Assembly (NCBI GenBank): GCA_046758745.1
Contig: JBHIAV010000054.1
Coordinates: forward strand, 1-16,226
Source: Gemmatimonadota bacterium
GTDB lineage: Bacteria > Gemmatimonadota > Gemmatimonadetes > Palauibacterales > Palauibacteraceae
Length of the DNA stretch: 16,226 nucleotides
Direction: 5' to 3'
The notes beneath the pieces are model-generated. The model searched no databases. It saw only the letters and a list, made by a program, of their open reading frames with translations, and was not told the DNA's origin. The position numbers and the translations under genes are program-made. Shown here in pieces: positions 795 through 15,748 of this stretch (its first letter is position 1; every line of letters starts with the position of its first letter).

Positions 795-1325
795 CTAACC
801 GAGATCGGGCTCCACTTGTAGGGCGTCGTTGAATCGGTTCGTGAAGTTGGCCACGCAAATAACCAGGGTCAGCTCCACGATCTGATCCTCGCTGTAGTGC
901 TTCCGGAGCTCCTCGAGCGTCCCGGAGCGAATTCCCGCGGCACCGCGGGTCGCCCGCTCCGCGTACAGCAGGGTCGCCTTCTCTTTGTCGTCGAACAGAT
1001 CGCTCCTCTGGTAGAACTGGAGCGCCCCGATCTGCTCCTCGGTCAGGCCCATCCGCTTCGCCGAAGCGGTGTGAGCGCGTGTTCAATACTCGCACCCGTT
1101 CAGCAGGGCCGTCTTCAGGTATGCCAGCTCCTTGTACTTCGACTCGACGGTCCCCTCGTTCAGAATCGAGCCGTACAGCGGCAGGAAGCTCTTCAGGACC
1201 GCAGGGCGGTGGGCCATCACGCCGAAGAAGTTGGGCATCCGCCCGAATTTCTCCGTCAGAGCCCCGTAGATCCCCTTGAGATCCGCCGGGGCCCTTTCGC
1301 TCGAAACCGGATCGATCGGTGGCAT
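795..1325 (-). CDS. AhpD-like / carboxymuconolactone decarboxylase family peroxidase-related protein, putative selenoprotein (UGA=Sec at codon 81, 176 aa)
   Basis: ATG at 1325 follows a GAGGAG RBS. The frame reads MPPIDPV...KELAYLKTALLNGCEY-TGA(1083-1085)-TRAHTASAKRMGLTEEQI...ANFTNRFNDAL and is continuous with the 795..1052 ORF. The TGA occupies the second Cys of CxxCxxxH, and a SECIS-like hairpin follows. Confidence 0.88.
1047..1076 (-). promoter_or_regulatory. Putative bacterial SECIS element (in-coding hairpin 3' of UGA)
   Basis: The mRNA after UGA is ACACGC GCUCA CA CCGCUUC GGC GAAGCGG A UGGGC. It forms a 7-bp upper stem CCGCUUC/GAAGCGG, a G-initial apical loop beginning after 20 nt, and a lower stem GCUCA/UGGGC. 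Confidence 0.75.
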
Positions 1326-1540
1326 GTCTGCTCCTCGATTCTGGTCCTGGGGCTCAGCCGCAGGAGTTTGGCGTGCATGGGGCTTCTCTGGACGTGCGTA
1401 GATGCTACCACCGCCGCGGACGGGTGGCGCGCGCTTCCACCCGCGGCTCCGGCCGGGAACGCGGGCCACTCCCGCCGGGACGACCGGGCGCCCCGGACGG
1501 GCTCGTACCGAGGTAGAATTGTGGCCGGGGAGGCCGAGCG

Positions 1541-4054: not shown

Positions 4055-5788
4055 ATGGGCCCACTCGACACGGTGATGCGGTATCACCTCGAGAGCAAGC
4101 ACCACTTGAGTCGGTATGCGCGCTCCCCCGGCCGCCTGGACTGGGCGAACCAGCCGAACCCGTTCCGCCGCTTCGACGGCGCGCCGCTCATTCGATTGCC
4201 GATCCTCGGCCCGGAGGAGGAGCCGCTCTCGCCCCTATACGACGATCTGTACCGGCCCTTCGCAGCGCCGAGCGCGTCCGTCTCCATCCGCAGCCTATCG
4301 AGATTGCTCGAGTATGCCCTTGCCCTCTCCGCGTGGAAGCAACTCGGCCACGCGCGTTGGGCCCTTCGCAGCAATCCCTCCAGCGGCAACCTGCATCCCA
4401 CCGAGGGCTACCTGTTGATCGGAGGGCTTAACGATACCGCGCTGACCGCCGGCCTCTACCATTACGCCCCGAAGGAGCACGGGCTCGAACGGCGCGCGGA
4501 GATCTCCGACGAGGTGCTCTCGGCACTCATGAAGGAGTTTCCCCCGGGATCCTTCTTGATGGGCCTTTCCTCCGTTCACTGGCGGGAGGCGTGGAAATAC
4601 GGCGAGCGCGCGTTTCGCTATTGCCAGCATGACGCGGGGCACGCGATTGCGGCGATCCGGATCGCGGCCGCGGCGTTGGGATGGAATGCCGTGATCCTCC
4701 ACGGCCTGGCGGATCGCACCATCGAGGCGCTGCTAGGGCTCGATCGGGCCGATGATTTCGAGGGCTCCGAGGGCGAAGATCCGGAGTTGGTGATGGTCGT
4801 CTGGCCGGCCGATGCTGGAGCTTGCGGACCGGACGGCCCGGGACGGCGACTTCCGCTCCACCTTGATCTCGATGCAGTTCGCGAGCTCACGAGACAACAC
4901 TGGTGCGGGAGGGCAAACCGGCTGAGCGCGGATGATCCGGTCTCCTGGGAGATCATCGATCATGTGGCGGCGGCGTCGCGGAAGCCGAGCGGCGAACGAA
5001 TGACCCTCGAGCTCGTCCGTCCGGCGAAGCCGCGGGGCGGGGCCGGGGGGACCTGCAGCGGGCCCTCCGCCGGGCGGATCATCCGGCAACGCCGAAGCCT
5101 CCTGGGCTGCGACGCCGAGACGGCGATTTCGGCGCAGAGTTTCTACCGCATGCTCTCCCGGGCGATGCCGCGCCTCGAACGCGATGTGAGCCGGCGTCCC
5201 ATGCCATGGGACGCGATCCCCTGGGACCCAGCGATCCATCTGGCCCTGTTCGTGCACAGGGTCGTTGACATCCCACCCGGGCTGTACATGCTGCCCCGCA
5301 ACTCCGGCAAGGTGGAGGCGCTGCGAGGCGCCATGCGGGCGGAATTCTCCTGGGAGACCCCGCCGCGTTGCCCTCCCGATCTCCCCCTCCGCCTGCTCGC
5401 GGAGGGGGACGCGAGGGACATCGCCACGACGGTCAGCTGTCACCAGGGGATCGCGGGAGACGGCGCGTTCGCCGTCGGCATGATCGCCGAGTTCGAGCCG
5501 ACCTTGCGACGGCGAGGCCCGTGGTTCTATCGGCGATTGTTCTGGGAGACGGGGGCAATCGGGCAGGTCCTCTATCTAGAGGCGGAAGCGGCCGGCGTCC
5601 GGGCGACGGGCGTCGGCTGCTTTTTCGATGATCTGGTCCACGAGGTCTTCGGTTTCCAGGATACCGCGTTCCAGTCGCTCTATCACTTCACGATCGGCGG
5701 GCCCGTGGACGACCCCCGCCTCACGACGCTGCCTCCGTACGGCCCCCACGTCGATGCGGGACCACCTGACCGGACCGGGGGATCGTAG
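4055..5788 (+). CDS. SagB/ThcOx-family FMN-dependent dehydrogenase (tandem nitroreductase domains)
   Basis: YHxxSKH, LDWANQPNPFR, LRSNPSSGNLHPTEGY, WREAWKYGERAFRYCQHDAGH; second domain IRQRRS, SCHQxIAGDG, ETGAIGQVLYLEAEA, TGVGCFFDD. Confidence 0.9.
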   Translation: MGPLDTVMRYHLESKHHLSRYARSPGRLDWANQPNPFRRFDGAPLIRLPILGPEEEPLSPLYDDLYRPFAAPSASVSIRSLSRLLEYALALSAWKQLGHARWALRSNPSSGNLHPTEGYLLIGGLNDTALTAGLYHYAPKEHGLERRAEISDEVLSALMKEFPPGSFLMGLSSVHWREAWKYGERAFRYCQHDAGHAIAAIRIAAAALGWNAVILHGLADRTIEALLGLDRADDFEGSEGEDPELVMVVWPADAGACGPDGPGRRLPLHLDLDAVRELTRQHWCGRANRLSADDPVSWEIIDHVAAASRKPSGERMTLELVRPAKPRGGAGGTCSGPSAGRIIRQRRSLLGCDAETAISAQSFYRMLSRAMPRLERDVSRRPMPWDAIPWDPAIHLALFVHRVVDIPPGLYMLPRNSGKVEALRGAMRAEFSWETPPRCPPDLPLRLLAEGDARDIATTVSCHQGIAGDGAFAVGMIAEFEPTLRRRGPWFYRRLFWETGAIGQVLYLEAEAAGVRATGVGCFFDDLVHEVFGFQDTAFQSLYHFTIGGPVDDPRLTTLPPYGPHVDAGPPDRTGGS

Positions 5789-5796
5789 CGGGTCCG

Positions 5797-6054
5797 TCAT
5801 CCTCCCCGTTGAAGCTCCTTCCTGACCTCACCGGAGATGGCGGGATCGCGATCGACGTACCGCTTGATTCGCTCGAGCGCGTCGAACCTGGTCATCTGCA
5901 CGACACGCTCAATCGCCGCGTGGCCGCGCCACTCGCAGTGGTCGACATGGTGTTCCCGACTGACGCTGCAGTTGCGACACTGCGTGGCGCCCCATGGCGC
6001 GAGCCAACACGGGCACGCCTCGTGGGCCGTCGCCACATCTTCCTCAAGGCTCAT
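5797..6054 (-). CDS. Small Cys/His-rich hypothetical protein (85 aa), possible metal-binding
   Basis: ATG follows GGAGGGAAG. The protein contains H-x2-CPC, CRNC and HHVDHC. It is co-directional with and about 37 bp downstream of the nfuA-like remnant. Confidence 0.55.
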   Translation of the reverse strand: MSLEEDVATAHEACPCWLAPWGATQCRNCSVSREHHVDHCEWRGHAAIERVVQMTRFDALERIKRYVDRDPAISGEVRKELQRGG

Positions 6055-6091
6055 CGAGACGCTTCCCTCCGCCGCCCACGGGATCGCCCAC

Positions 6092-6461
6092 CTACCGGCC
6101 CGGAGTGCAGAAGGGGCTCTTGCCGGCCGCGTGATCCGTGGCGTCGACCAGCGAGATCCTTCCGCCGTGACGCTCCACAGCCGGATCGACCTCGTCCTCC
6201 AGCAGGGATCGGACGTCTTCTCTGATCTCGGCCTCGCCTCGAGGGCCGTTGCGCCGGGCGGCGCGCTTGTCGAGGATGGCGGGAACCGGCGGCGTCGGTT
6301 GGGTGCGGATCGCGGCCCCGATCGGCCTCATGAGGTCGGACCACCCGGCGGACGCCGTCTTCCCCACGCTCACGACATCTCCCGCGACCAGTGTCGGGGT
6401 CGGCGGGAGAGGGCTGCGCCCTGATGGTGATCGCGCCCGCGACGCGAATCTTCTCAGTCAT
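6092..6461 (-). pseudogene. NfuA/NifU-like Fe-S carrier remnant with two internal deletions
   Basis: ATG 6461 overlaps the end of the mrp ORF. ITIRAQPSPADPDT jumps frame at about 6392 to LVAGDVVSVGKTASAGWSDLMRPIGAAIR (end of Nfu_N). It continues LLEDEVDPAVERHGGRISLVD, joined directly to the NfuA-like tail ATDHAAGKSPF. The CxxC-bearing core is absent. Confidence 0.75.
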
Positions 6462-7710
6462 CGTCCTTCGTGGCCCGTGTCGATCCGCGCTCGGCGAGGG
6501 AGCGAAGAAGCTCGAAGGAATAGAACCCCGTGCGATGGCCGTCGTTCCAGGCGATGTTGATCGCGTAGCTGCCGACGCTCGAGATGACCCGTGGTGCCAC
6601 GTCCCGGCGCACGGTCTTGGGATCGAGCCTCCTCCGACCGGTCGTCTCATCGACGCACGCGGCGCAGGGACAGGCGAGCCGGAGGTCTCGGACGTCGTGG
6701 TCTTGCCGCCGTCCATCCTGCCAGAGGATCGACAGCGTCCGCGGGTCACGCCGCCGAAGTCCAACCGGGACGATCGTTCCTCCCTCCGGGGCGGCCACCC
6801 TCTCGAGCCAGGACGGAGCCGTCTTGTCGTCACCCCAGCTCCAGACGAACGGCTCCAGAACGACCTCCGGCGTCGCGTCGAGGCTCCGCACCAGTTGCGT
6901 GGCGATGGCGCGGTAGGCGACGGCCGCCCGGGAATCCGGGCTGCCCGTAACGATCGGCCGACCCTCGTCTCCGCCCGTGACGATCTCCGGGTCGATCGGT
7001 ACGGCGCCGAGGAACGGAACGCCCAGTTCTTCGCTCATGCGACGGCCTCCACCCCGGCGGAAGATGTCCGTCGTCTCGCCGCAGTGCGAGCACAGGAAGC
7101 TGCTCATGTTCTCGATGATGCCGAGGATGGGGACCTGGACCTTCTCGAACATCCGGAGCCCTCGGCGGGCGATGCGGAGGCTGACGTCCTGCGGTGTCGT
7201 CACGATGATCGCGCCGGAGAGCGGCACTCCCTGGGAGAGCGTGAGCTGCGTATCGCCGGTCCCCGGCGGAAGATCGAGGATCAGGTGGTCCACTTTACCC
7301 CAGGCGACCCCGGTCACGAACGCCTGGAGATACTTCGAGACCATGGGCCCGCGGAGGATCGCCGGCTCGTCATCGCCGGTCAGGATGCCCATCGAGATCA
7401 CTTTCAGCCCCGAGCGTTCGAGGGGCACGATCCGTCCCTCCGCGGTCATCGTCGGTCGTGGGCCCCGCGGGATCCCGAGCATGACCGGTATGCTGGGCCC
7501 GAAGAGGTCCGCGTCGACGAGCCCCGTCGGCGTGCCCATCCGGCTCAGGGCGAGCGCGAGGTTGACGCTGACGGTCGATTTCCCCACACCCCCCTTTCCG
7601 CTTGCGACCGCGACGATGTGGCGGACCCCCGGCAGCTTCTCCCGTACGGGGGCACCTCCCGGGGGCCGGGTGGGCGACTGGTCGGGGCCTGGAGCGCGGT
7701 CGGTTGGCAC
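6454..7710 (-). CDS. mrp: Mrp/NBP35/ApbC Fe-S cluster carrier ATPase fused to C-terminal DUF971 (GBBH-like N-terminal) domain
   Basis: SGKGGVGKST deviant Walker A, DADLFGPS, LRGPM, DLPPGTGD, VTTPQ, ENMS and CSHC motifs. The C-terminus has LRLACPCAACVDETTG and VGSYAINIAWNDGHRTGFYSF. The start is placed at GTG 7710 because the track's TTG at 7746 coincides with the -35 box. Confidence 0.92.
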   Translation of the reverse strand: MPTDRAPGPDQSPTRPPGGAPVREKLPGVRHIVAVASGKGGVGKSTVSVNLALALSRMGTPTGLVDADLFGPSIPVMLGIPRGPRPTMTAEGRIVPLERSGLKVISMGILTGDDEPAILRGPMVSKYLQAFVTGVAWGKVDHLILDLPPGTGDTQLTLSQGVPLSGAIIVTTPQDVSLRIARRGLRMFEKVQVPILGIIENMSSFLCSHCGETTDIFRRGGGRRMSEELGVPFLGAVPIDPEIVTGGDEGRPIVTGSPDSRAAVAYRAIATQLVRSLDATPEVVLEPFVWSWGDDKTAPSWLERVAAPEGGTIVPVGLRRRDPRTLSILWQDGRRQDHDVRDLRLACPCAACVDETTGRRRLDPKTVRRDVAPRVISSVGSYAINIAWNDGHRTGFYSFELLRSLAERGSTRATKDDD

Positions 7711-7750
7711 AAGGTACAATGTATCAAAAGTGTACCATTTAGTCAATTAT
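7711..7750 (-). promoter_or_regulatory. Sigma70 promoter of the mrp operon (probably leaderless), with candidate operator
   Basis: TTGACT (7746-7741), 17-bp spacer, TG-n-TACATT (7723-7718), then 7 nt to GTG 7710, with no SD. An inverted repeat GGTACA-N12-TGTACC spans 7713-7736. Confidence 0.7.
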
Positions 7751-7795
7751 TAATTCGAACCGCCCTGCCCGTCCCCGAGCCCACCTCTCTTCGCG

Positions 7796-10111
7796 TCAGC
7801 GCCCCGCCGCCACCTCGGAGCGAACCTGCCGCGCCGCTTCGACCATCGCGATAAGCGCGGGCCGGATCTCGTCCCAGGTCCGAGTCTTGAGGCCGCAGTC
7901 CGGATTGACCCAGATCTGCTCCGGCCGGAGCACGGAGAGCGCCTTGCGCAGAAGCTCCTCGATCTCCTCGCGCTTCGGCACCCGAGGGGAGTGGATGTCG
8001 TAGACGCCGGGACCAATGTCCCCCGGGTAGCCGGAGCTGGCGAAGGAGTCGAGCAGCTCCATGTGCGAACGGGACGCCTCGACCGAGATGACATCGGCAT
8101 CCATGGTGCTCACCGCGTCGATGATGTCGTTGAACTCCGAGTAGCACATATGGGTGTGTATCTGGGTCCCGTCCGAGGCGCCCGCGGAGGCGAGGCGAAA
8201 CGCCTCTATCGCCCAGTCCAGATAGGCCTTCCAGCGCTCGCGCCGCAGAGGCAGGCCCTCGCGCATCGCCGGCTCGTCGATCTGGATCACCCTCAGGCCG
8301 GCCGCCTCGAGGTCGGCGACCTCGTCGCGGATGGCGAGCGCGATCTGACGGCAGATGACGGCTCGAGGCAGGTCATCCCTGACGAAGGACCATTGGAGAA
8401 TCGTCACGGGGCCCGTCAGCATGCCCTTGACGGGCCGCTCGGTCAGGGACTGAGCGTATCTCGACCAGTCCACCGTCATCGGGCCCCGGCGGGAAACATC
8501 GCCGAAGATGATCGGCGGCTTGACGCACCGCGATCCGTAGCTTTGGACCCAACCGTTCTGGGTGAACGCGAAGCCGGCGAGCTGCTCGCCGAAATACTCG
8601 ACCATGTCGTTGCGCTCGAACTCGCCGTGCACCAATACATCGAGTCCGATCTCCTCCTGGAACGTGATGGCCCGTTTCGTCTCCTCCCGCAGGAATTTCT
8701 CGTAGCTCCCGACGCCTCGAGTTCCGGCACGGAACTCCGCGCGCGCCTTCCGCACCGCGCTCGTCTGGGGAAACGACCCAATGGTTGTCGTCGGGAGGGC
8801 CGGTAGCTTCAGGCGGGCTCTCTGTTTCTTCCGGCGGGTCCCGTACGCGCTGCCCCGGCGCAGCATCGGCCCACCAATGGCGGAGAGTCGGGCCCGCACG
8901 GCGCTGTCGTGGACTCGGGGCGAGGCGCGGCGTCCGCCGAGCGCTCGGCGGGCCGCCTCGAGGTCCGCGCGCACCGCGTCCCGACCTTCATGGAGCGCCC
9001 TGGTGAGCACGGTGATCTCGCGCAGCTTCTGCCCCGCGAACGCCAGCCAGCTCGTCAGCTCCGGGTCCATACGTTCTTCCAGATCGAGATCGACCGGGAC
9101 GTGGAGAAGGGAGCACGACGGCGCGACCATCACGCGGTCCGGGCCGAGCGCCGCGACGGCCCGCTCCAGGGTGGCCAGGGCGGCATCGAGATCCGCGCGA
9201 AAGATGTTGCGACCGTCCACGACGCCGAGCGACAGGGCCAGGCTCGGCGGCACCTGTCTCAAAGCACGATCGAGACAGTCCGGGGCCCGCACCAGGTCGA
9301 GGTGGAGGGCGTGGATGGGAAGCCCGAGAGCCATCCCCAAGTTATCGCCCAGGTCTCCGAAGTACGCGGCCACGAGCAGGCGCGTCCGCACAGCCGCGGC
9401 GCCGAGCCGCCCATAGGCGGAGGCGAACGCCTCACGAGAGGTGCTGCTCAGGTCGAGCGCCAGGCACGGCTCGTCGAGCTGTACCCAAGGCGCCCCGGCT
9501 TCCTGCAGCCTCCCCAGAACCTCTTCATACACGGGCAGTAGGGCCGGCAGGAGCTCCAGCGACGATCCCGCTCGATCGCCGTACATCTTGCTCAGCAGCA
9601 GGAAGGAGACCGGGCCGAGGATCACCGGTCGCGTCGTGATCCCCAGCGCCCTGGCCTCGAGGAACTCGTCAATCGGCTTCGTGGAACCCAGCCGGAAAGT
9701 CTGGTCCTTCCGGAGCTCCGGCACGATGAAGTGGTAGTTCGTGTCGAACCACTTCGTCAGCTCCATCGCCGGAACGCTCACCGCGCCGCTCGCATCGCTC
9801 TCCTGGAGTCCCCGCGCCATGGCGAAGTAGGTCTTCAGGCCGATCGTCGTGCCTTCCGGCGCGTAGCGCTCGGGCACGGCGCCGACCATCACCGCCGTGT
9901 CGAGCACGTGGTCGTACAGGGAGAAATCGTTGCTCGGGATCGCATCCAGGCCGAGGTCGATCTGAACCCTCCAATTCCGGGCGCGCAACGCCCGGCACTC
10001 GCCGATCAGATCCGCCTCGCCGAGGCTTCCCGACCAGTAGTGCTCGAGCGCCCGCTTCAGCTCCCGCCGCGGGCCGATCCGTGGGTAACCGAGATTCGTC
10101 GCCATCACCAC
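7796..10111 (-). CDS. metE: Cobalamin-independent methionine synthase
   Basis: 771 aa. NLGYPRIGPRRELK, DFSLYDHVLD, KWFDTNYH, LPTTTIGSFPQT, HGEFERNDMVEYF and WVQSYGSRCVKPP motifs, plus Zn ligands HTHMCYSEF and NPDCGLKTR. Strong GAGGAGGAGG RBS. Confidence 0.97.
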   Translation of the reverse strand: MVMATNLGYPRIGPRRELKRALEHYWSGSLGEADLIGECRALRARNWRVQIDLGLDAIPSNDFSLYDHVLDTAVMVGAVPERYAPEGTTIGLKTYFAMARGLQESDASGAVSVPAMELTKWFDTNYHFIVPELRKDQTFRLGSTKPIDEFLEARALGITTRPVILGPVSFLLLSKMYGDRAGSSLELLPALLPVYEEVLGRLQEAGAPWVQLDEPCLALDLSSTSREAFASAYGRLGAAAVRTRLLVAAYFGDLGDNLGMALGLPIHALHLDLVRAPDCLDRALRQVPPSLALSLGVVDGRNIFRADLDAALATLERAVAALGPDRVMVAPSCSLLHVPVDLDLEERMDPELTSWLAFAGQKLREITVLTRALHEGRDAVRADLEAARRALGGRRASPRVHDSAVRARLSAIGGPMLRRGSAYGTRRKKQRARLKLPALPTTTIGSFPQTSAVRKARAEFRAGTRGVGSYEKFLREETKRAITFQEEIGLDVLVHGEFERNDMVEYFGEQLAGFAFTQNGWVQSYGSRCVKPPIIFGDVSRRGPMTVDWSRYAQSLTERPVKGMLTGPVTILQWSFVRDDLPRAVICRQIALAIRDEVADLEAAGLRVIQIDEPAMREGLPLRRERWKAYLDWAIEAFRLASAGASDGTQIHTHMCYSEFNDIIDAVSTMDADVISVEASRSHMELLDSFASSGYPGDIGPGVYDIHSPRVPKREEIEELLRKALSVLRPEQIWVNPDCGLKTRTWDEIRPALIAMVEAARQVRSEVAAGR

Positions 10112-10754: not shown

Positions 10755-11066
10755 TCAGGGGATCTCGACCTCGACGTCGTTTCCCTCAACGCGCACCTTA
10801 TACGACGGCACCTCCCCTGGTGCCGGTGGCGTCAGGTTCTTGCCCGTCGTCACCTCGAACTCGGCGCCGTGCAGCGGACAGGTGACCGTGGTCCCTTCGA
10901 GCGCCCCTTCAGAGAGAGAGCCCCCGCGGTGCGTGCAGGCGTCCCCGATCGCGTAGAACGTCCCTCCGACGTTGAATAGCGCGATCTGCCGCCCTCCCAC
11001 CTCGACCGCCTTGCCGGTCCCGGGAGCCAGCTCGTTGACGTCAGCGACCTTATGAAAAGTGGCCAT
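10755..11066 (-). CDS. Rieske [2Fe-2S] ferredoxin
   Basis: CTH...CPLHG Rieske ligands, 103 aa. GAGGAGG RBS before ATG 11066. Confidence 0.95.
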   Translation of the reverse strand: MATFHKVADVNELAPGTGKAVEVGGRQIALFNVGGTFYAIGDACTHRGGSLSEGALEGTTVTCPLHGAEFEVTTGKNLTPPAPGEVPSYKVRVEGNDVEVEIP

Positions 11067-11466
11067 CGTGTTTTGCCTCCTCGTTCGCTCCGCGCCGCCC
11101 GGACCAATCGGCAAGACGGGCACCGCGGAGCCCACCCCTCGAGTGGAAGCGCCGAGCCGAGATCGGCTCCGCCTCCAGAGCGTCACCGAATTGCGGCATT
11201 CTAGCCCTTTCATTGCCGTTGAACAAGCCTCCAGAGGCACGGGAAACACAGCTGACCTCTCCCCTCAGCTTCTCGAGTGATTGATCCCCACTCTCATGCC
11301 ATTTGAAGAGTTCATGTGCTTTCTGGTAGTCCGCCTCAACAAACGCCGCCATGACGAACGCCTCGGCCCGATCGGCTGCAATGCTGGGGCTGTGACCGAG
11401 GCGCTGTACCCTTGGAACTCGACAACCGGAAACCATAGGCAGCAGCAGTGCCGGATTCCTCTTCAC
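11050..11466 (-). other. Possible degraded lipoprotein ORF
   Basis: GGAGG RBS, then GTG-KRNPALLLPMVSGC (lipobox-like VSGC) and a helical segment AEAFVMAAFVEADYQKAHELF. The 3' part looks non-coding and overlaps the Rieske start. Confidence 0.3.
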
Positions 11467-13269: not shown

Positions 13270-13635
13270 GCTGCAACACCTTCCGAGACTCCATCGAAAG
13301 CATGTTGTGAATCACGCTCGCTAGGTCTTCCTCGTCGATCAGAATCGCCTCCTGCCGCCGGATCTCGCATGGATTGCCGATGGAGGGGCCTGAGGAGGTC
13401 GAGCATCTTGTCGAGCGGGCCAGAGGACAAGTCCGCTCAGAACGCTGTCGCGCATTCGATCCCCTTTTCGAACGAGAGATGGTACAGGTTCCACACGATG
13501 CCCCTCGTCAAGAGGACCCGAGGGGCGAAGTCCAGGTATTCTCTGGCGTGTATCAGCATCGTTGAGGTTGTCTTCCGGCGCCTTGGCGAGGTGAGGGAGC
13601 AGCTTCTTCAGCGGCTCCCGGATATCGATGGCCAC
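13270..13635 (-). pseudogene. Remnant of a restriction-endonuclease-like (type I HsdR N-terminal domain-like) protein
   Basis: GTG follows GGAGGAGG. Protein-like blocks occur in shifting frames: MAIDIREPLKKLLPHL..EDNLNDADTRQRI (NEADT-like), VLLTRGIVWNLYHLSFEKG (LTNG.W-like) with an in-frame stop at 13437-13439, and EIRRQEAILIDEEDLASVIHNMLS. The 3' boundary is approximate. Confidence 0.55.
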
Positions 13636-14218
13636 CGAGCCTTTCCCTCCTCCGCTCGAGCAGGAATACTGCCCAACGTGCGTGGCCTCGGCCTCGCGTT
13701 GGACTTTTCCGAATGTCCTTCCAGGTGGTCTGTACGGCGGAATATACGCCTGGTCTCAGTCTTGAACAAGACCCTCGGAGTCGACCCGGCGGAGACCAAC
13801 TCGGCTCCACGGAACTGCTTGCCTAGTCAGGCCTTCGGCCGCGGGGGTTTCCGCGTGGCGCGGAGAGTCAGACAACCCAACGGCCACGCAGATCCCCTCG
13901 CGGTGATGCCGAGGGTTCTCTCCGAGGCCGGGCCGAGGGGACGGGTTTGCTGGGCCGAACCCCGCACGCTCGGGGACATTCGGGGAGATGAAGAGGCGGG
14001 CCGATGTTGGCCGCAGCGCGCCTTTCCCGAAAGCAATTTCGGCCCCCCACGCGTTCCGCGTTTCGAAACACTTTCCTGACAAGCCGTTACCGTGGGGTCG
14101 GGGCTCCCTGCAGGTTAAGGGAACCAGTTCCCGGACCCACTCCACTGACCTATGCGTGTCTTGAATCCCGCCGAGAGTTGATGATGGGCTCAGCCGATAT
14201 ATCGTGGGCCCGCTCCCT

Positions 14219-15748
14219 TCAGCGCGGGGGCTCCCGAGGACCGGTCTCCAGGACGGTCAGATCGAAGATCGCGAGATCCACGACCATGTGGTATGCGGCC
14301 GCCGCGTGGTAGCGCGTTCTAAGAATTGCCCGCATCTCCTCCGTGTACCGCGAGCCGAACAGCCATTCGGGCCGCGTCTGGGCGATCACGGTTCGGATCC
14401 GGCCGTCCGCGAGCGCTTCGAGAAACGGTCTCTGGTCCCAGCGGCCCGCTTCCGCGAGCTGGGTCATGACGAACGGCTGAAAGATGACCTCCTTGCCGGC
14501 GCACCGGAGAAGGACCGCGTCGTCGGAGACGGCCGGCCCGGGCCGCGCCGCCAGGTCCCGGCACATCAGATCGAAGACCGTCGGCTCGGCAGAGAGAGCC
14601 TGGTGCGTCTGGCGGACGTCAACGAAACGGACCGCACCCAGGAGGACGGCGGCGGCGCCCAGCGCCGCGCAGGCAACCCGTCCCGGTCGGCCGCGATCCC
14701 GCAGCCACGGAAGCGGAAACTCGTTCGCCGCCAGCAGCGCAACGGCGGCTAGCGGCTCGATGAAGTAGTTCGAGTCGGAGCCGAGCTTGCCGGAGCTGAG
14801 GGACACGGCCGCCGCGATAACGGCATAGAGGCCGAAGATCGACAGACGCCTTGCGGTCGCGAGAGCAGCGAGCGCGGGCGACATGAGGAGCAGCTCCGGC
14901 GCATGAGAGGCGAGGAACCTCCCCGCGAGAGTCCACGCGCCCGCCCAGGAGAACGGGTTGCGGTTGGCCGTGACCGTGTGGAAAAGAAACCAGCCATCCG
15001 AGTACCAGGACAACGCGGTGGCGGCGCCCCCAAGCAGGACCGCGAGTGAGGCGGCGAACACGAGTCCACGCCGCGGCGAGCGCGCGATGAGGAAGATCGT
15101 CACCGCCAGGGCGGCCGCGACGTAGCTCTGCTTCGTCAGGATCGCGGCGGCCAGCAGCGGCGCGGCCCAGAGAAGCCCAGGGCGCGCCGCGCCGCGCGCG
15201 GCGACGAGAATCCCCAGGGCAGAGAGGAGCGCCGCTGTGTAATCGGGCCGGGCCACCAACAACCAGGAGCGCTGCAGCGGAGCAAGTAGGAACAGGAACG
15301 CGGCGATGGGTGCGACCGCTCCCGCCCAGCGCCTCTCCGAGATGCCGATGATCCCCGCGAGCAGCGTCGCGGACAGAAGCGAGACGAGTCGCGCCGCCAG
15401 CAGACCAGGCAGTCCCAGCGCGATCAACAAGGCGACGAGAGAGGTGTAAAGAGGCGTGTAGACGCTCACCACGAAGGGCGGCTCTGAGGGGTCGCCGTAC
15501 AGAGCCTCCCCACGCGCCAGCCGAGCGGCGTCGTTGACGTTGAATCCTTCGGCGTAGCTGAACGCCTGAGGCAGCTCGATCCGTGCGACGAGCCCGTCCA
15601 GGACGGTCCATGCGGCGAGGACTGCCAGCACCAGGAGCGCCACATGATGGGCGAGGCGCCCGGCCGAAGAGCCCGACGGTATGCGGCTCGGGTTAATCGG
15701 GCCGGCACCTTCCAGCGGAGCGTGATCTCCTGACAGCGCGCGAGTCAC
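14219..15748 (-). CDS. GT-C fold (ArnT/PMT/GT39-like) polytopic membrane glycosyltransferase
   Basis: 509 aa multi-TM protein with an N-terminal loop YAEG...GEALY...YTPLY and ARPD, LTKQ and GKLGSDSNYFIE motifs, plus a soluble C-terminal domain. The start is uncertain. Confidence 0.75.
   Translation of the reverse strand: MTRALSGDHAPLEGAGPINPSRIPSGSSAGRLAHHVALLVLAVLAAWTVLDGLVARIELPQAFSYAEGFNVNDAARLARGEALYGDPSEPPFVVSVYTPLYTSLVALLIALGLPGLLAARLVSLLSATLLAGIIGISERRWAGAVAPIAAFLFLLAPLQRSWLLVARPDYTAALLSALGILVAARGAARPGLLWAAPLLAAAILTKQSYVAAALAVTIFLIARSPRRGLVFAASLAVLLGGAATALSWYSDGWFLFHTVTANRNPFSWAGAWTLAGRFLASHAPELLLMSPALAALATARRLSIFGLYAVIAAAVSLSSGKLGSDSNYFIEPLAAVALLAANEFPLPWLRDRGRPGRVACAALGAAAVLLGAVRFVDVRQTHQALSAEPTVFDLMCRDLAARPGPAVSDDAVLLRCAGKEVIFQPFVMTQLAEAGRWDQRPFLEALADGRIRTVIAQTRPEWLFGSRYTEEMRAILRTRYHAAAAYHMVVDLAIFDLTVLETGPREPPR

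Follow-up and report, generated by a model that had tools for sequence, protein, structure and literature searches.

A predicted AhpD-like selenoprotein gene recorded as two separate proteins in a Gemmatimonadota contig

Is a lone UGA in the middle of an otherwise intact AhpD-like reading frame a stop, an error or a codon for selenocysteine (Sec)? The question is raised by positions 795–1325 of a 16,226-nucleotide (nt) stretch of Gemmatimonadota DNA (contig JBHIAV010000054.1 of assembly GCA_046758745.1; hereafter, the window is this whole stretch). An earlier note on the window had argued that two open reading frames (ORFs) at this locus are halves of one selenoprotein. We consider it highly probable, on comparative sequence evidence, that the locus is one gene encoding an AhpD-like thiol/selenol oxidoreductase of 176 residues with the site C78-E-Y-U81, H85 and E66, in which UGA would be read as Sec by way of SelB and a hairpin. 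The locus is a genuine AhpD-type selenoprotein gene, and its recognition is an annotation correction within a class that has long been known.

One reading frame across the UGA codon

The gene lies on the minus strand, in a frame that runs from ATG (1325–1323) to TAG (797–795) and comprises 176 codons and the stop. Its sole in-frame stop, TGA at 1085–1083, is codon 81 of the 176; read as U, it gives a product with a single U, at residue 81, in the context ...LLNGCEY-U-TRAHTASAKRMGLTEEQ... (LLNGCEY-U-TRAHTASAKR). A mechanical ORF list holds both pieces (795..1052, encoding 85 aa, and 1083..1469), and two pieces, the one of 85 aa and another of 80 aa beginning at ATG 1325, have separate database records as predicted proteins of the 16,226-base contig, indicating that the locus has been split by gene callers. 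A 128-aa form starting at GTG 1469 has no database record, unlike the 80-aa piece. A scan of positions 600–1600 gave no sigma-70-like promoter and no intrinsic terminator.

The read-through protein matches the Pfam family CMD (PF02627) at 66.7 bits (cut-off 23) over residues 41–123, spanning the UGA, and the AhpD core domain TIGR00778 at 39.9 bits (cut-off 27.8). Among the sequences of solved structures its best match is PA0269 (E = 2e-21, residues 54–173); Bmp8 and the AhpD proteins of D. radiodurans and S. pneumoniae are also matched. The segment NGCEYUTRAH pairs with PA0269 NGCAYCVNMH across the TGA and, at an ungapped offset of 30, residues E66, C78, Y80, U81 and H85 fall on PA0269 Glu36, Cys48, Tyr50, Cys51 and His55. 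These PA0269 residues are described as a proton relay equivalent to Glu118, Cys130, His132, Cys133 and His137 of Mycobacterium tuberculosis AhpD (PMC3141380; this and the other papers are cited from excerpts). The window protein shows the relay pattern of peroxidase-type AhpD, Glu...Cys-x-x-Cys-x-x-x-His, with Sec replacing the second Cys, and none of the five columns varies in an alignment of 25 orthologues (A2).

An AlphaFold model computed from alignment A2, with U modelled as C, is all-helical with nine helices (mean predicted local distance difference test score (pLDDT) 92.6, predicted template modelling score (pTM) 0.87). A Foldseek search of the Protein Data Bank (PDB) returned 37 matches at E ≤ 0.001, and those listed are AhpD-like or CMD chains. 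The highest template modelling scores for the query (TMq) belong to D. radiodurans AhpD (6k40, 0.89), 2pfx (0.88), S. pneumoniae AhpD (6e8l, 0.86) and the debrominase Bmp8 (0.81–0.83). The window protein is a member of the CMD/AhpD family, with the all-helical AhpD fold and its relay residues. Three claims of the earlier note thus hold up: that the locus encodes one 176-aa protein with a single internal UGA, as the translation and the CMD and PA0269 matches across the TGA bear out; that this UGA falls on the second Cys with a His four residues on, as seen in C78-x-x-U81 and H85; and that the locus is annotated as two genes, both halves being on record as separate proteins.

The host genome, an assembly of 3.08 Mb in 130 contigs estimated to be 87% complete, encodes each component of Sec synthesis and insertion that the earlier note had expected of it. 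These are tRNA-Sec (82.2 bits against Rfam RF01852; called tRNA-SeC with anticodon tca by ARAGORN), selA (523 bits), selB (359.5 bits, on the contig that also carries tRNA-Sec) and selD (354 bits; locus L016, G000:C11:70024-70941, plus strand), and each scores above its curated cut-off. The selD gene carries one in-frame TGA of its own, in the N-terminal motif ...SHGAG-U-ACKLGP, so that the selenophosphate synthetase is itself of the Sec type. In the window, TGA is the normal stop of the Pfam-supported DUF420, VOC, response-regulator and MetE genes, which indicates that the genetic code has not been reassigned.

The stretch was found in three DNA runs (X1–X3) from three samples. A contig from X2 (covering 1060–1500) and one from X3 (941–1209) both span 1083–1085 with zero differences, and the only variant listed across 700–1500 is at position 1101. 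As a separate observation, contigs of 33–35 bases in X1–X3 match only the active-site and hairpin stretch at 1054–1094, at a higher depth (10–38) and with two differences, which suggests that other organisms in these samples carry closely similar Sec-type copies.

Codon 81 and its hairpin among relatives

If the UGA is a Sec codon, its relatives should carry either the same TGA or a Cys codon at this place, as the earlier note had anticipated. A search of 41 related genomes (including the window's own, G000) at E ≤ 1e-10 found matches in 20; of the 27 match rows, 21 have exactly one TGA and six have none. When 19 loci outside the window were aligned by tblastn, a stop stood exactly at codon 81 in 13 and Cys in four; L037 and L038, both from rows with one TGA, gave no alignment across residue 81 and are excluded from the counts. 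The 13 stop-bearing sequences are distant homologues, with 26–35% identity and the stop in the same column. We then define as orthologues the best 80 of 163 relatives (one genome per species scanned; 60–84% identity), which are mostly from metagenome-assembled genomes (MAGs) of Acidobacteriota (Polarisedimenticolia, Terriglobia, Acidiferrales, Bryobacterales) and from Rokubacteria. Codon 81 is TGA at 40 of these loci, TGC at 34 and TGT at six, in line with the anticipated pattern. The gene is one of an orthologous group from Acidobacteriota and Rokubacteria MAGs whose members alternate between Sec and Cys forms. Three near-identical Cys forms come from MAGs labelled Micrarchaeota, Saccharimonadales and Verrucomicrobiia (L080, L084 and L112) and nest in an Acidobacteriota clade; they probably reflect binning errors, not gene transfer.

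Downstream of the UGA, the transcript can form an apical hairpin at 1053–1069 (CCGCUUC-GGC-GAAGCGG) with 7 bp and a 3-nt loop beginning with G, which starts 13 nt past the UGA and stands on a lower stem of 5 bp (1072–1076 with 1047–1051). A stem-loop just past the UGA whose apical loop is small and contains G is the published description of a bacterial Sec insertion sequence (SECIS; PMC1088965, in excerpt), and the window hairpin has this form. The 41 nt from the UGA fold at −16.3 kcal/mol (z = −2.13), a value equalled by six of 200 shuffles.

Comparison ties this hairpin to the TGA codon. In a first set of relatives, a hairpin of 6–8 bp with a GGC or GGU loop is present in 14 of 14 TGA sequences, and none is found at that place in four Cys loci. 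An ungapped alignment of these 14 TGA sequences (A1; 12 distinct) has the seven pairs formed in 88.1% of cells, compared with 60.3 ± 4.2 in shuffles (0 of 500 reach the observed value) and 18–64% in controls slid along the alignment. The hairpins of L031 and L032 lie 2–3 nt out of register and were kept in A1, scored as unpaired cells. Changes on both sides occur in six of the seven pairs, a number that 33 of 500 shuffles reach.

The 80 orthologues separate the two forms more sharply. All seven pairs are present in 38 of the 40 TGA forms and six pairs in the other two (loop GGC in 30 of these Sec orthologues and GUC in 10), whereas the 40 Cys forms keep between one and six pairs each and none of them has all seven. 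Sixteen of the Cys forms share the peptide A-S-S-K-R and have only 3–6 pairs; the synonymous sites are thus constrained only where the codon is TGA.

We also placed the orthologues on a quick maximum-likelihood tree of 81 proteins, with codon 81 masked and a midpoint root used for drawing only. The tree needs at least seven Sec/Cys changes, of which the well-supported branches alone force two; shuffled states need 27.4 on average, and none of 500 shuffles gets down to seven. Sec forms are spread over the tree, with two large Cys clades nested among them. The nearest relative of the window protein is L039 (Sec, 85% identity over 168 columns), and the next is L040, a Cys form from Polarisedimenticolia. 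One Cys form, L094, groups as sister to L118, a Sec form (SH-aLRT 98), and retains six of the seven hairpin pairs, which is consistent with a recent change from Sec to Cys. Six pairs are likewise present in L093, L097, L104, L105 and L079, and these six Cys forms look like carriers of decaying SECIS relics left after a Sec-to-Cys change. The features of the window locus are collected in Table 1.

Table 1 Features of the AhpD-like locus in the window
Feature	Position	Strand	Basis
Complete coding sequence (CDS), predicted AhpD-like (CMD-family) selenoprotein	795..1325	−	One frame with a single U; PF02627; most orthologues align over residues 1–176
UGA codon 81, predicted Sec of C78-E-Y-U81	1083..1085	−	Second-Cys column of PA0269 NGCAYCVNMH; TGA or TGC/TGT in orthologues
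Active-site segment, codons 66–85 (E66, C78, Y80, U81, H85)	1071..1130	−	AhpD proton-relay set
SECIS-type stem-loop inside the CDS	1047..1076	−	Fold of 41 nt from the UGA; kept in TGA orthologues
Putative Shine–Dalgarno-like GAGGAG, 5 nt 5′ of the ATG	1331..1336	−	Read from the sequence

Competing readings of the UGA codon

Protein databases offer a different residue at this position in some relatives. A large protein collection yielded 701 full-length relatives at E ≤ 1e-20, named ‘uncharacterized peroxidase-related enzyme’ (used for many by JGI) or ‘carboxymuconolactone decarboxylase family protein’. Examined by motif, the best 120 of the 701 have Cys at the Sec position in 104 cases, Trp in nine, Glu in three and Asp in one; the remaining three do not fit the motif: Glu occupies the position in two of them, and in one the first Cys is replaced by Ser. 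The nine Trp forms (P0012, P0021, P0032, P0034, P0038, P0051, P0064, P0078 and P0122) all come from JGI, with longest contigs of 942–1852 bases, and the peptide after their Trp (TASAKR, IASAKR, TASSKR or SASGKR) resembles that of Sec forms. Trp is otherwise rare in the family, 110 of the 120 proteins having none. At the 80 metagenome loci nearest P0034 (77–95% identity; its own contig is not among them), the codon is TGA in 80 of 80 and TGG in none, and the hairpin has all seven pairs in 63 and six of them in 17. We infer, strongly, that the stored W is best read as TGA translated under a code that reads it as Trp. The earlier note had named a Trp in homologues as an observation that would overturn the Sec reading; Trp does occur, in nine of 120 database proteins, but the DNA of the 80 loci nearest one of these proteins has TGA throughout.

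Six further close relatives, at 62–68% identity (P0027, P0067, P0087, P0116, P0118 and P0119), carry Glu or Asp where the second Cys or Sec would stand (CxYE, CxYD or SxYE). The peptide that follows also differs (AAAKK, AAAKR or AAAQR), and CxxC chemistry is not possible for these proteins.

Four other accounts of the UGA can be set against Sec insertion. The Trp records are what would favour its being read as Trp, Gly or Cys, through a changed code or near-cognate read-through. We consider such a reading very unlikely: TGA is the stop codon of four Pfam-supported genes in the window, TGG stands at codon 81 in 0 of 160 DNA loci (those nearest the W-bearing P0034 included, at up to 95% identity), Trp is nearly absent from the family elsewhere, and UGA pairs with Cys in the orthologues and comes with both a SECIS hairpin and the whole Sec pathway. 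A nonsense mutation in a Cys-type AhpD-like gene, with the two halves forming a pseudogene, would need only a single-base change from TGC or TGT to TGA, in a family in which Cys forms are common (40 of 80 loci), and gene callers do treat the locus as two ORFs. Such a pseudogene is nevertheless highly improbable, given that the same TGA recurs at 40 of the 80 orthologous loci, at every one of the 80 metagenome loci and in the 13 distant homologues, that the downstream half is intact and conserved in all of these, with one stop per match, that the hairpin is kept at synonymous sites only alongside TGA forms, and that the Sec machinery of the host is complete. Least probable of all is a sequencing or assembly error in a single contig. 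The assembly is of the metagenome type, in 130 contigs, and the run depth is modest (about 4–10), but the X2 and X3 contigs are identical to the window at the codon and orthologues elsewhere share the TGA. The TGA is thus not private to one assembly; its being private to one strain or read set was a circumstance that the earlier note had listed as fatal to its proposal.

Release factor 2 is in competition with Sec insertion, which also hinges on the available selenium. The gene could therefore be a true selenoprotein gene in which the UGA mostly terminates, the 80-residue fragment being the main product and the Sec form minor or selenium-dependent. This too has a very low probability in our judgement: the fragment ends before U81, H85 and the C-terminal helices of the modelled fold, and the sequence past the TGA is strongly conserved. 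UGA recoding, as opposed to nonsense mutation, was the central proposal of the earlier note, and it is supported by the TGA or Cys at codon 81, the TGA-linked hairpin, the Sec machinery and the presence of the TGA in the assemblies of three samples.

On the favoured reading, that of a Sec codon decoded through SelB, SelB carrying Sec-tRNA(Sec) would decode the UGA at 1083–1085, recruited by the 7-bp GGC-loop hairpin 13 nt downstream within the CDS. The host would supply selenophosphate through SelD, made with an in-frame UGA of its own, together with SelA, SelB and tRNA-Sec. By homology, Sec would take the place of the second Cys of CxxC; the U81 selenolate may attack an oxidized partner or peroxide, C78 may resolve the intermediate to a selenenylsulfide, and a reductant would then recycle the enzyme. 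In M. tuberculosis AhpD, an excerpt of PMC6626918 reports that Cys133, and not Cys130, cross-links to Cys61 of AhpC; Cys133 is thus the residue that forms the mixed disulfide with this peroxiredoxin.

Several observations weigh against this reading or narrow it. Selenium incorporation and expression are predictions, and no RNA run was listed for the stretch. All three DNA runs stem from a single study, and the window itself may derive from X1. As to the hairpin, a 76-nt fold around it is undistinctive (z = −0.67; 44 of 200 shuffles equal it, in DNA of 65.5% G+C), so its weight rests on comparison; the covariation controls in turn ignore relatedness, and the helix was defined from the same sequences. 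The conserved peptide A-S-A/S-K-R supplies some of the stem pairing, and six Cys forms retain six of seven pairs. An Rfam scan of 950–1150 at E ≤ 10 gave three chance-level matches and no SECIS family. Among protein models, the best-scoring NCBIfam entry is NF053654, ‘YciW-related (seleno)protein’, at 97.8 bits over residues 2–171 against a cut-off of 310, and TIGR01926, ‘peroxidase-related enzyme’, is a near miss (75.0 bits over residues 4–173; cut-off 81.8). Three other AhpD-type seleno-models, NF041047, NF041238 and NF041537, score 18–23 bits. On these scores, the window protein is a member of none of the four seleno-models. There is no peroxiredoxin in the 16-kb window and no conserved partner adjoining the gene. 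Finally, the relatives with Glu or Asp, four by motif and two more, indicate that CxxC/U chemistry is not universal in the group.

Genomic neighbourhood and known AhpD-like systems

The gene stands alone in the window, between a convergent DUF420 gene (146–694) and a divergent glyoxalase/VOC gene (1541–1945). Six window neighbours (DUF420, VOC, two response regulators, a BamE-like gene and a nitroreductase) were searched for at the 80 orthologous loci, and only VOC was found, at a single locus. Clustering of the ORFs around the same loci turned up no partner shared by more than 26 of them; the largest cluster, with 40 loci, was rejected as a partner, being the C-terminal half of the TGA genes and an artefact of the filter. 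Two of seven cluster representatives matched Pfam families (AMP-binding enzyme and M48 peptidase) and five matched none, and we take the recurring clusters as lineage synteny and not as a functional partner.

Elsewhere in the host genome there are ten matches to AhpC-TSA (PF00578), all on other contigs. Two of them contain an in-frame TGA: L122 (G000:C3:16493-16891, minus strand) reads ...ARTPG-U-T (T-x-x-U) and L124 (G000:C2:46383-46754, minus strand) reads ...REFT-U-VPC (U-x-x-C). In both, the TGA falls at the redox motif or peroxidatic position, and both are likely to be further selenoproteins of this genome. As partners of the AhpD-like protein they are candidates only.

AhpD-like selenoproteins have been on record since the Sargasso Sea survey of 2005, in which excerpts list CxxU selenoproteins with 27 AhpD-like (COG2128) and four CMD-domain sequences (PMC1088965). 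Global Ocean Sampling (GOS) data added, in the part of PMC2398784 drawn on here, 299 selenoproteins and 902 Cys homologues for ‘AhpD-like 1’ (COG2128), and 70 and 207, respectively, for ‘AhpD-like 2’ (pfam02627). The statement of the earlier note that Sec-containing AhpD-like proteins are known from metagenomes is borne out by these two sources. A 2026 review, again in excerpt, lists AhpD-like selenoproteins as TIGR01926 CxxU and PF02627 CxxU (PMC13188914), an AhpD-like selenoprotein family serves as the browsing example of BSepDB (excerpt of PMC13326102), and Sec/Cys interchange is the topic of PMC1794560, as far as its excerpt goes. The class, the CxxU motif and the Sec/Cys dynamics are already in print, and the locus opens no new question.

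As far as these excerpts describe them, the marine-metagenome AhpD-like selenoproteins share with the window protein the domain family, a CxxU motif in which Sec takes the second Cys position, a SECIS directly past the UGA with a small G-containing loop, and many Cys homologues. They differ in coming from marine plankton, whereas the window group comes from Acidobacteriota and Rokubacteria MAGs and scores just under the TIGR01926 cut-off. PA0269 of P. aeruginosa (2o4d, 2ijc and 7xw1), which is AhpD-like and weakly active as a peroxidase, has all five relay residues in register and a similar fold (33–34% identity, root-mean-square deviation 1.7–2.0). It has Cys at the second position and is shorter (145 aa compared with 176); because about 30 N-terminal residues of the window protein are absent from it, its TMq is only 0.70. 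M. tuberculosis AhpD, the AhpC reductant, has the same E...CxxCxxxH relay, and the Sec of the window protein stands at the position of its AhpC-cross-linking Cys133 (excerpts of PMC3141380 and PMC6626918). In that protein, however, the motif helices are C-terminal and the gene is co-transcribed with ahpC (PMC3141380, in excerpt), whereas the window gene has no peroxiredoxin gene within 16 kb, Tyr for His132 and Sec for Cys; the canonical ahpC–ahpD adjacency of the M. tuberculosis type is absent. The NF053654 family resembles the window protein in being AhpD-type and variable between Sec and Cys, although the window protein falls far below its equivalog cut-off.

With the locus stored as two meaningless fragments and some of its relatives as Trp proteins, the selenoproteome of these bacteria is under-counted, and no full-length NCBIfam model reaches its cut-off for the orthologous group. 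The 40/40 split between Sec and Cys in close orthologues provides a clean natural set on Sec/Cys interchange. The same set informs how a SECIS inside a CDS constrains synonymous sites, with the hairpin complete in Sec forms only and partial relics in some Cys forms.

Taken together, the results may point to a wider picture, which we put forward tentatively and regard as somewhat less probable than its contrary. The window protein would belong to a distinct AhpD-like selenoprotein group, widespread in Acidobacteriota and Rokubacteria MAGs and outside the curated models, in which Sec is the older state and Cys has arisen several times, leaving SECIS relics. Records would systematically show its members as two fragments or as a Trp protein; in the host genome, the protein and the two Sec-type peroxiredoxins might together form a peroxide relay based wholly on selenium.

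A scan of the window for a second selenoprotein (TGA beside Cys, Thr or Ser, flanked on either side by at least 50 open codons) returned 15 rows, which fall at 13 places; the 795–1325 gene accounts for one of these places. The other places were rejected, as they look like off-frame, G+C-rich sequence; the one checked, 13311–13823, has no Pfam match. Three further ORFs also have no Pfam match: 5837–6424 and 6391–7854 on the plus strand and 14219–15748 on the minus strand (195, 487 and 509 aa, respectively). Elsewhere, the window encodes a 577-aa protein with two nitroreductase-domain stretches (4055–5788, plus strand), MetE (7796–10111, minus strand) and a Rieske protein (10755–11249, minus strand).

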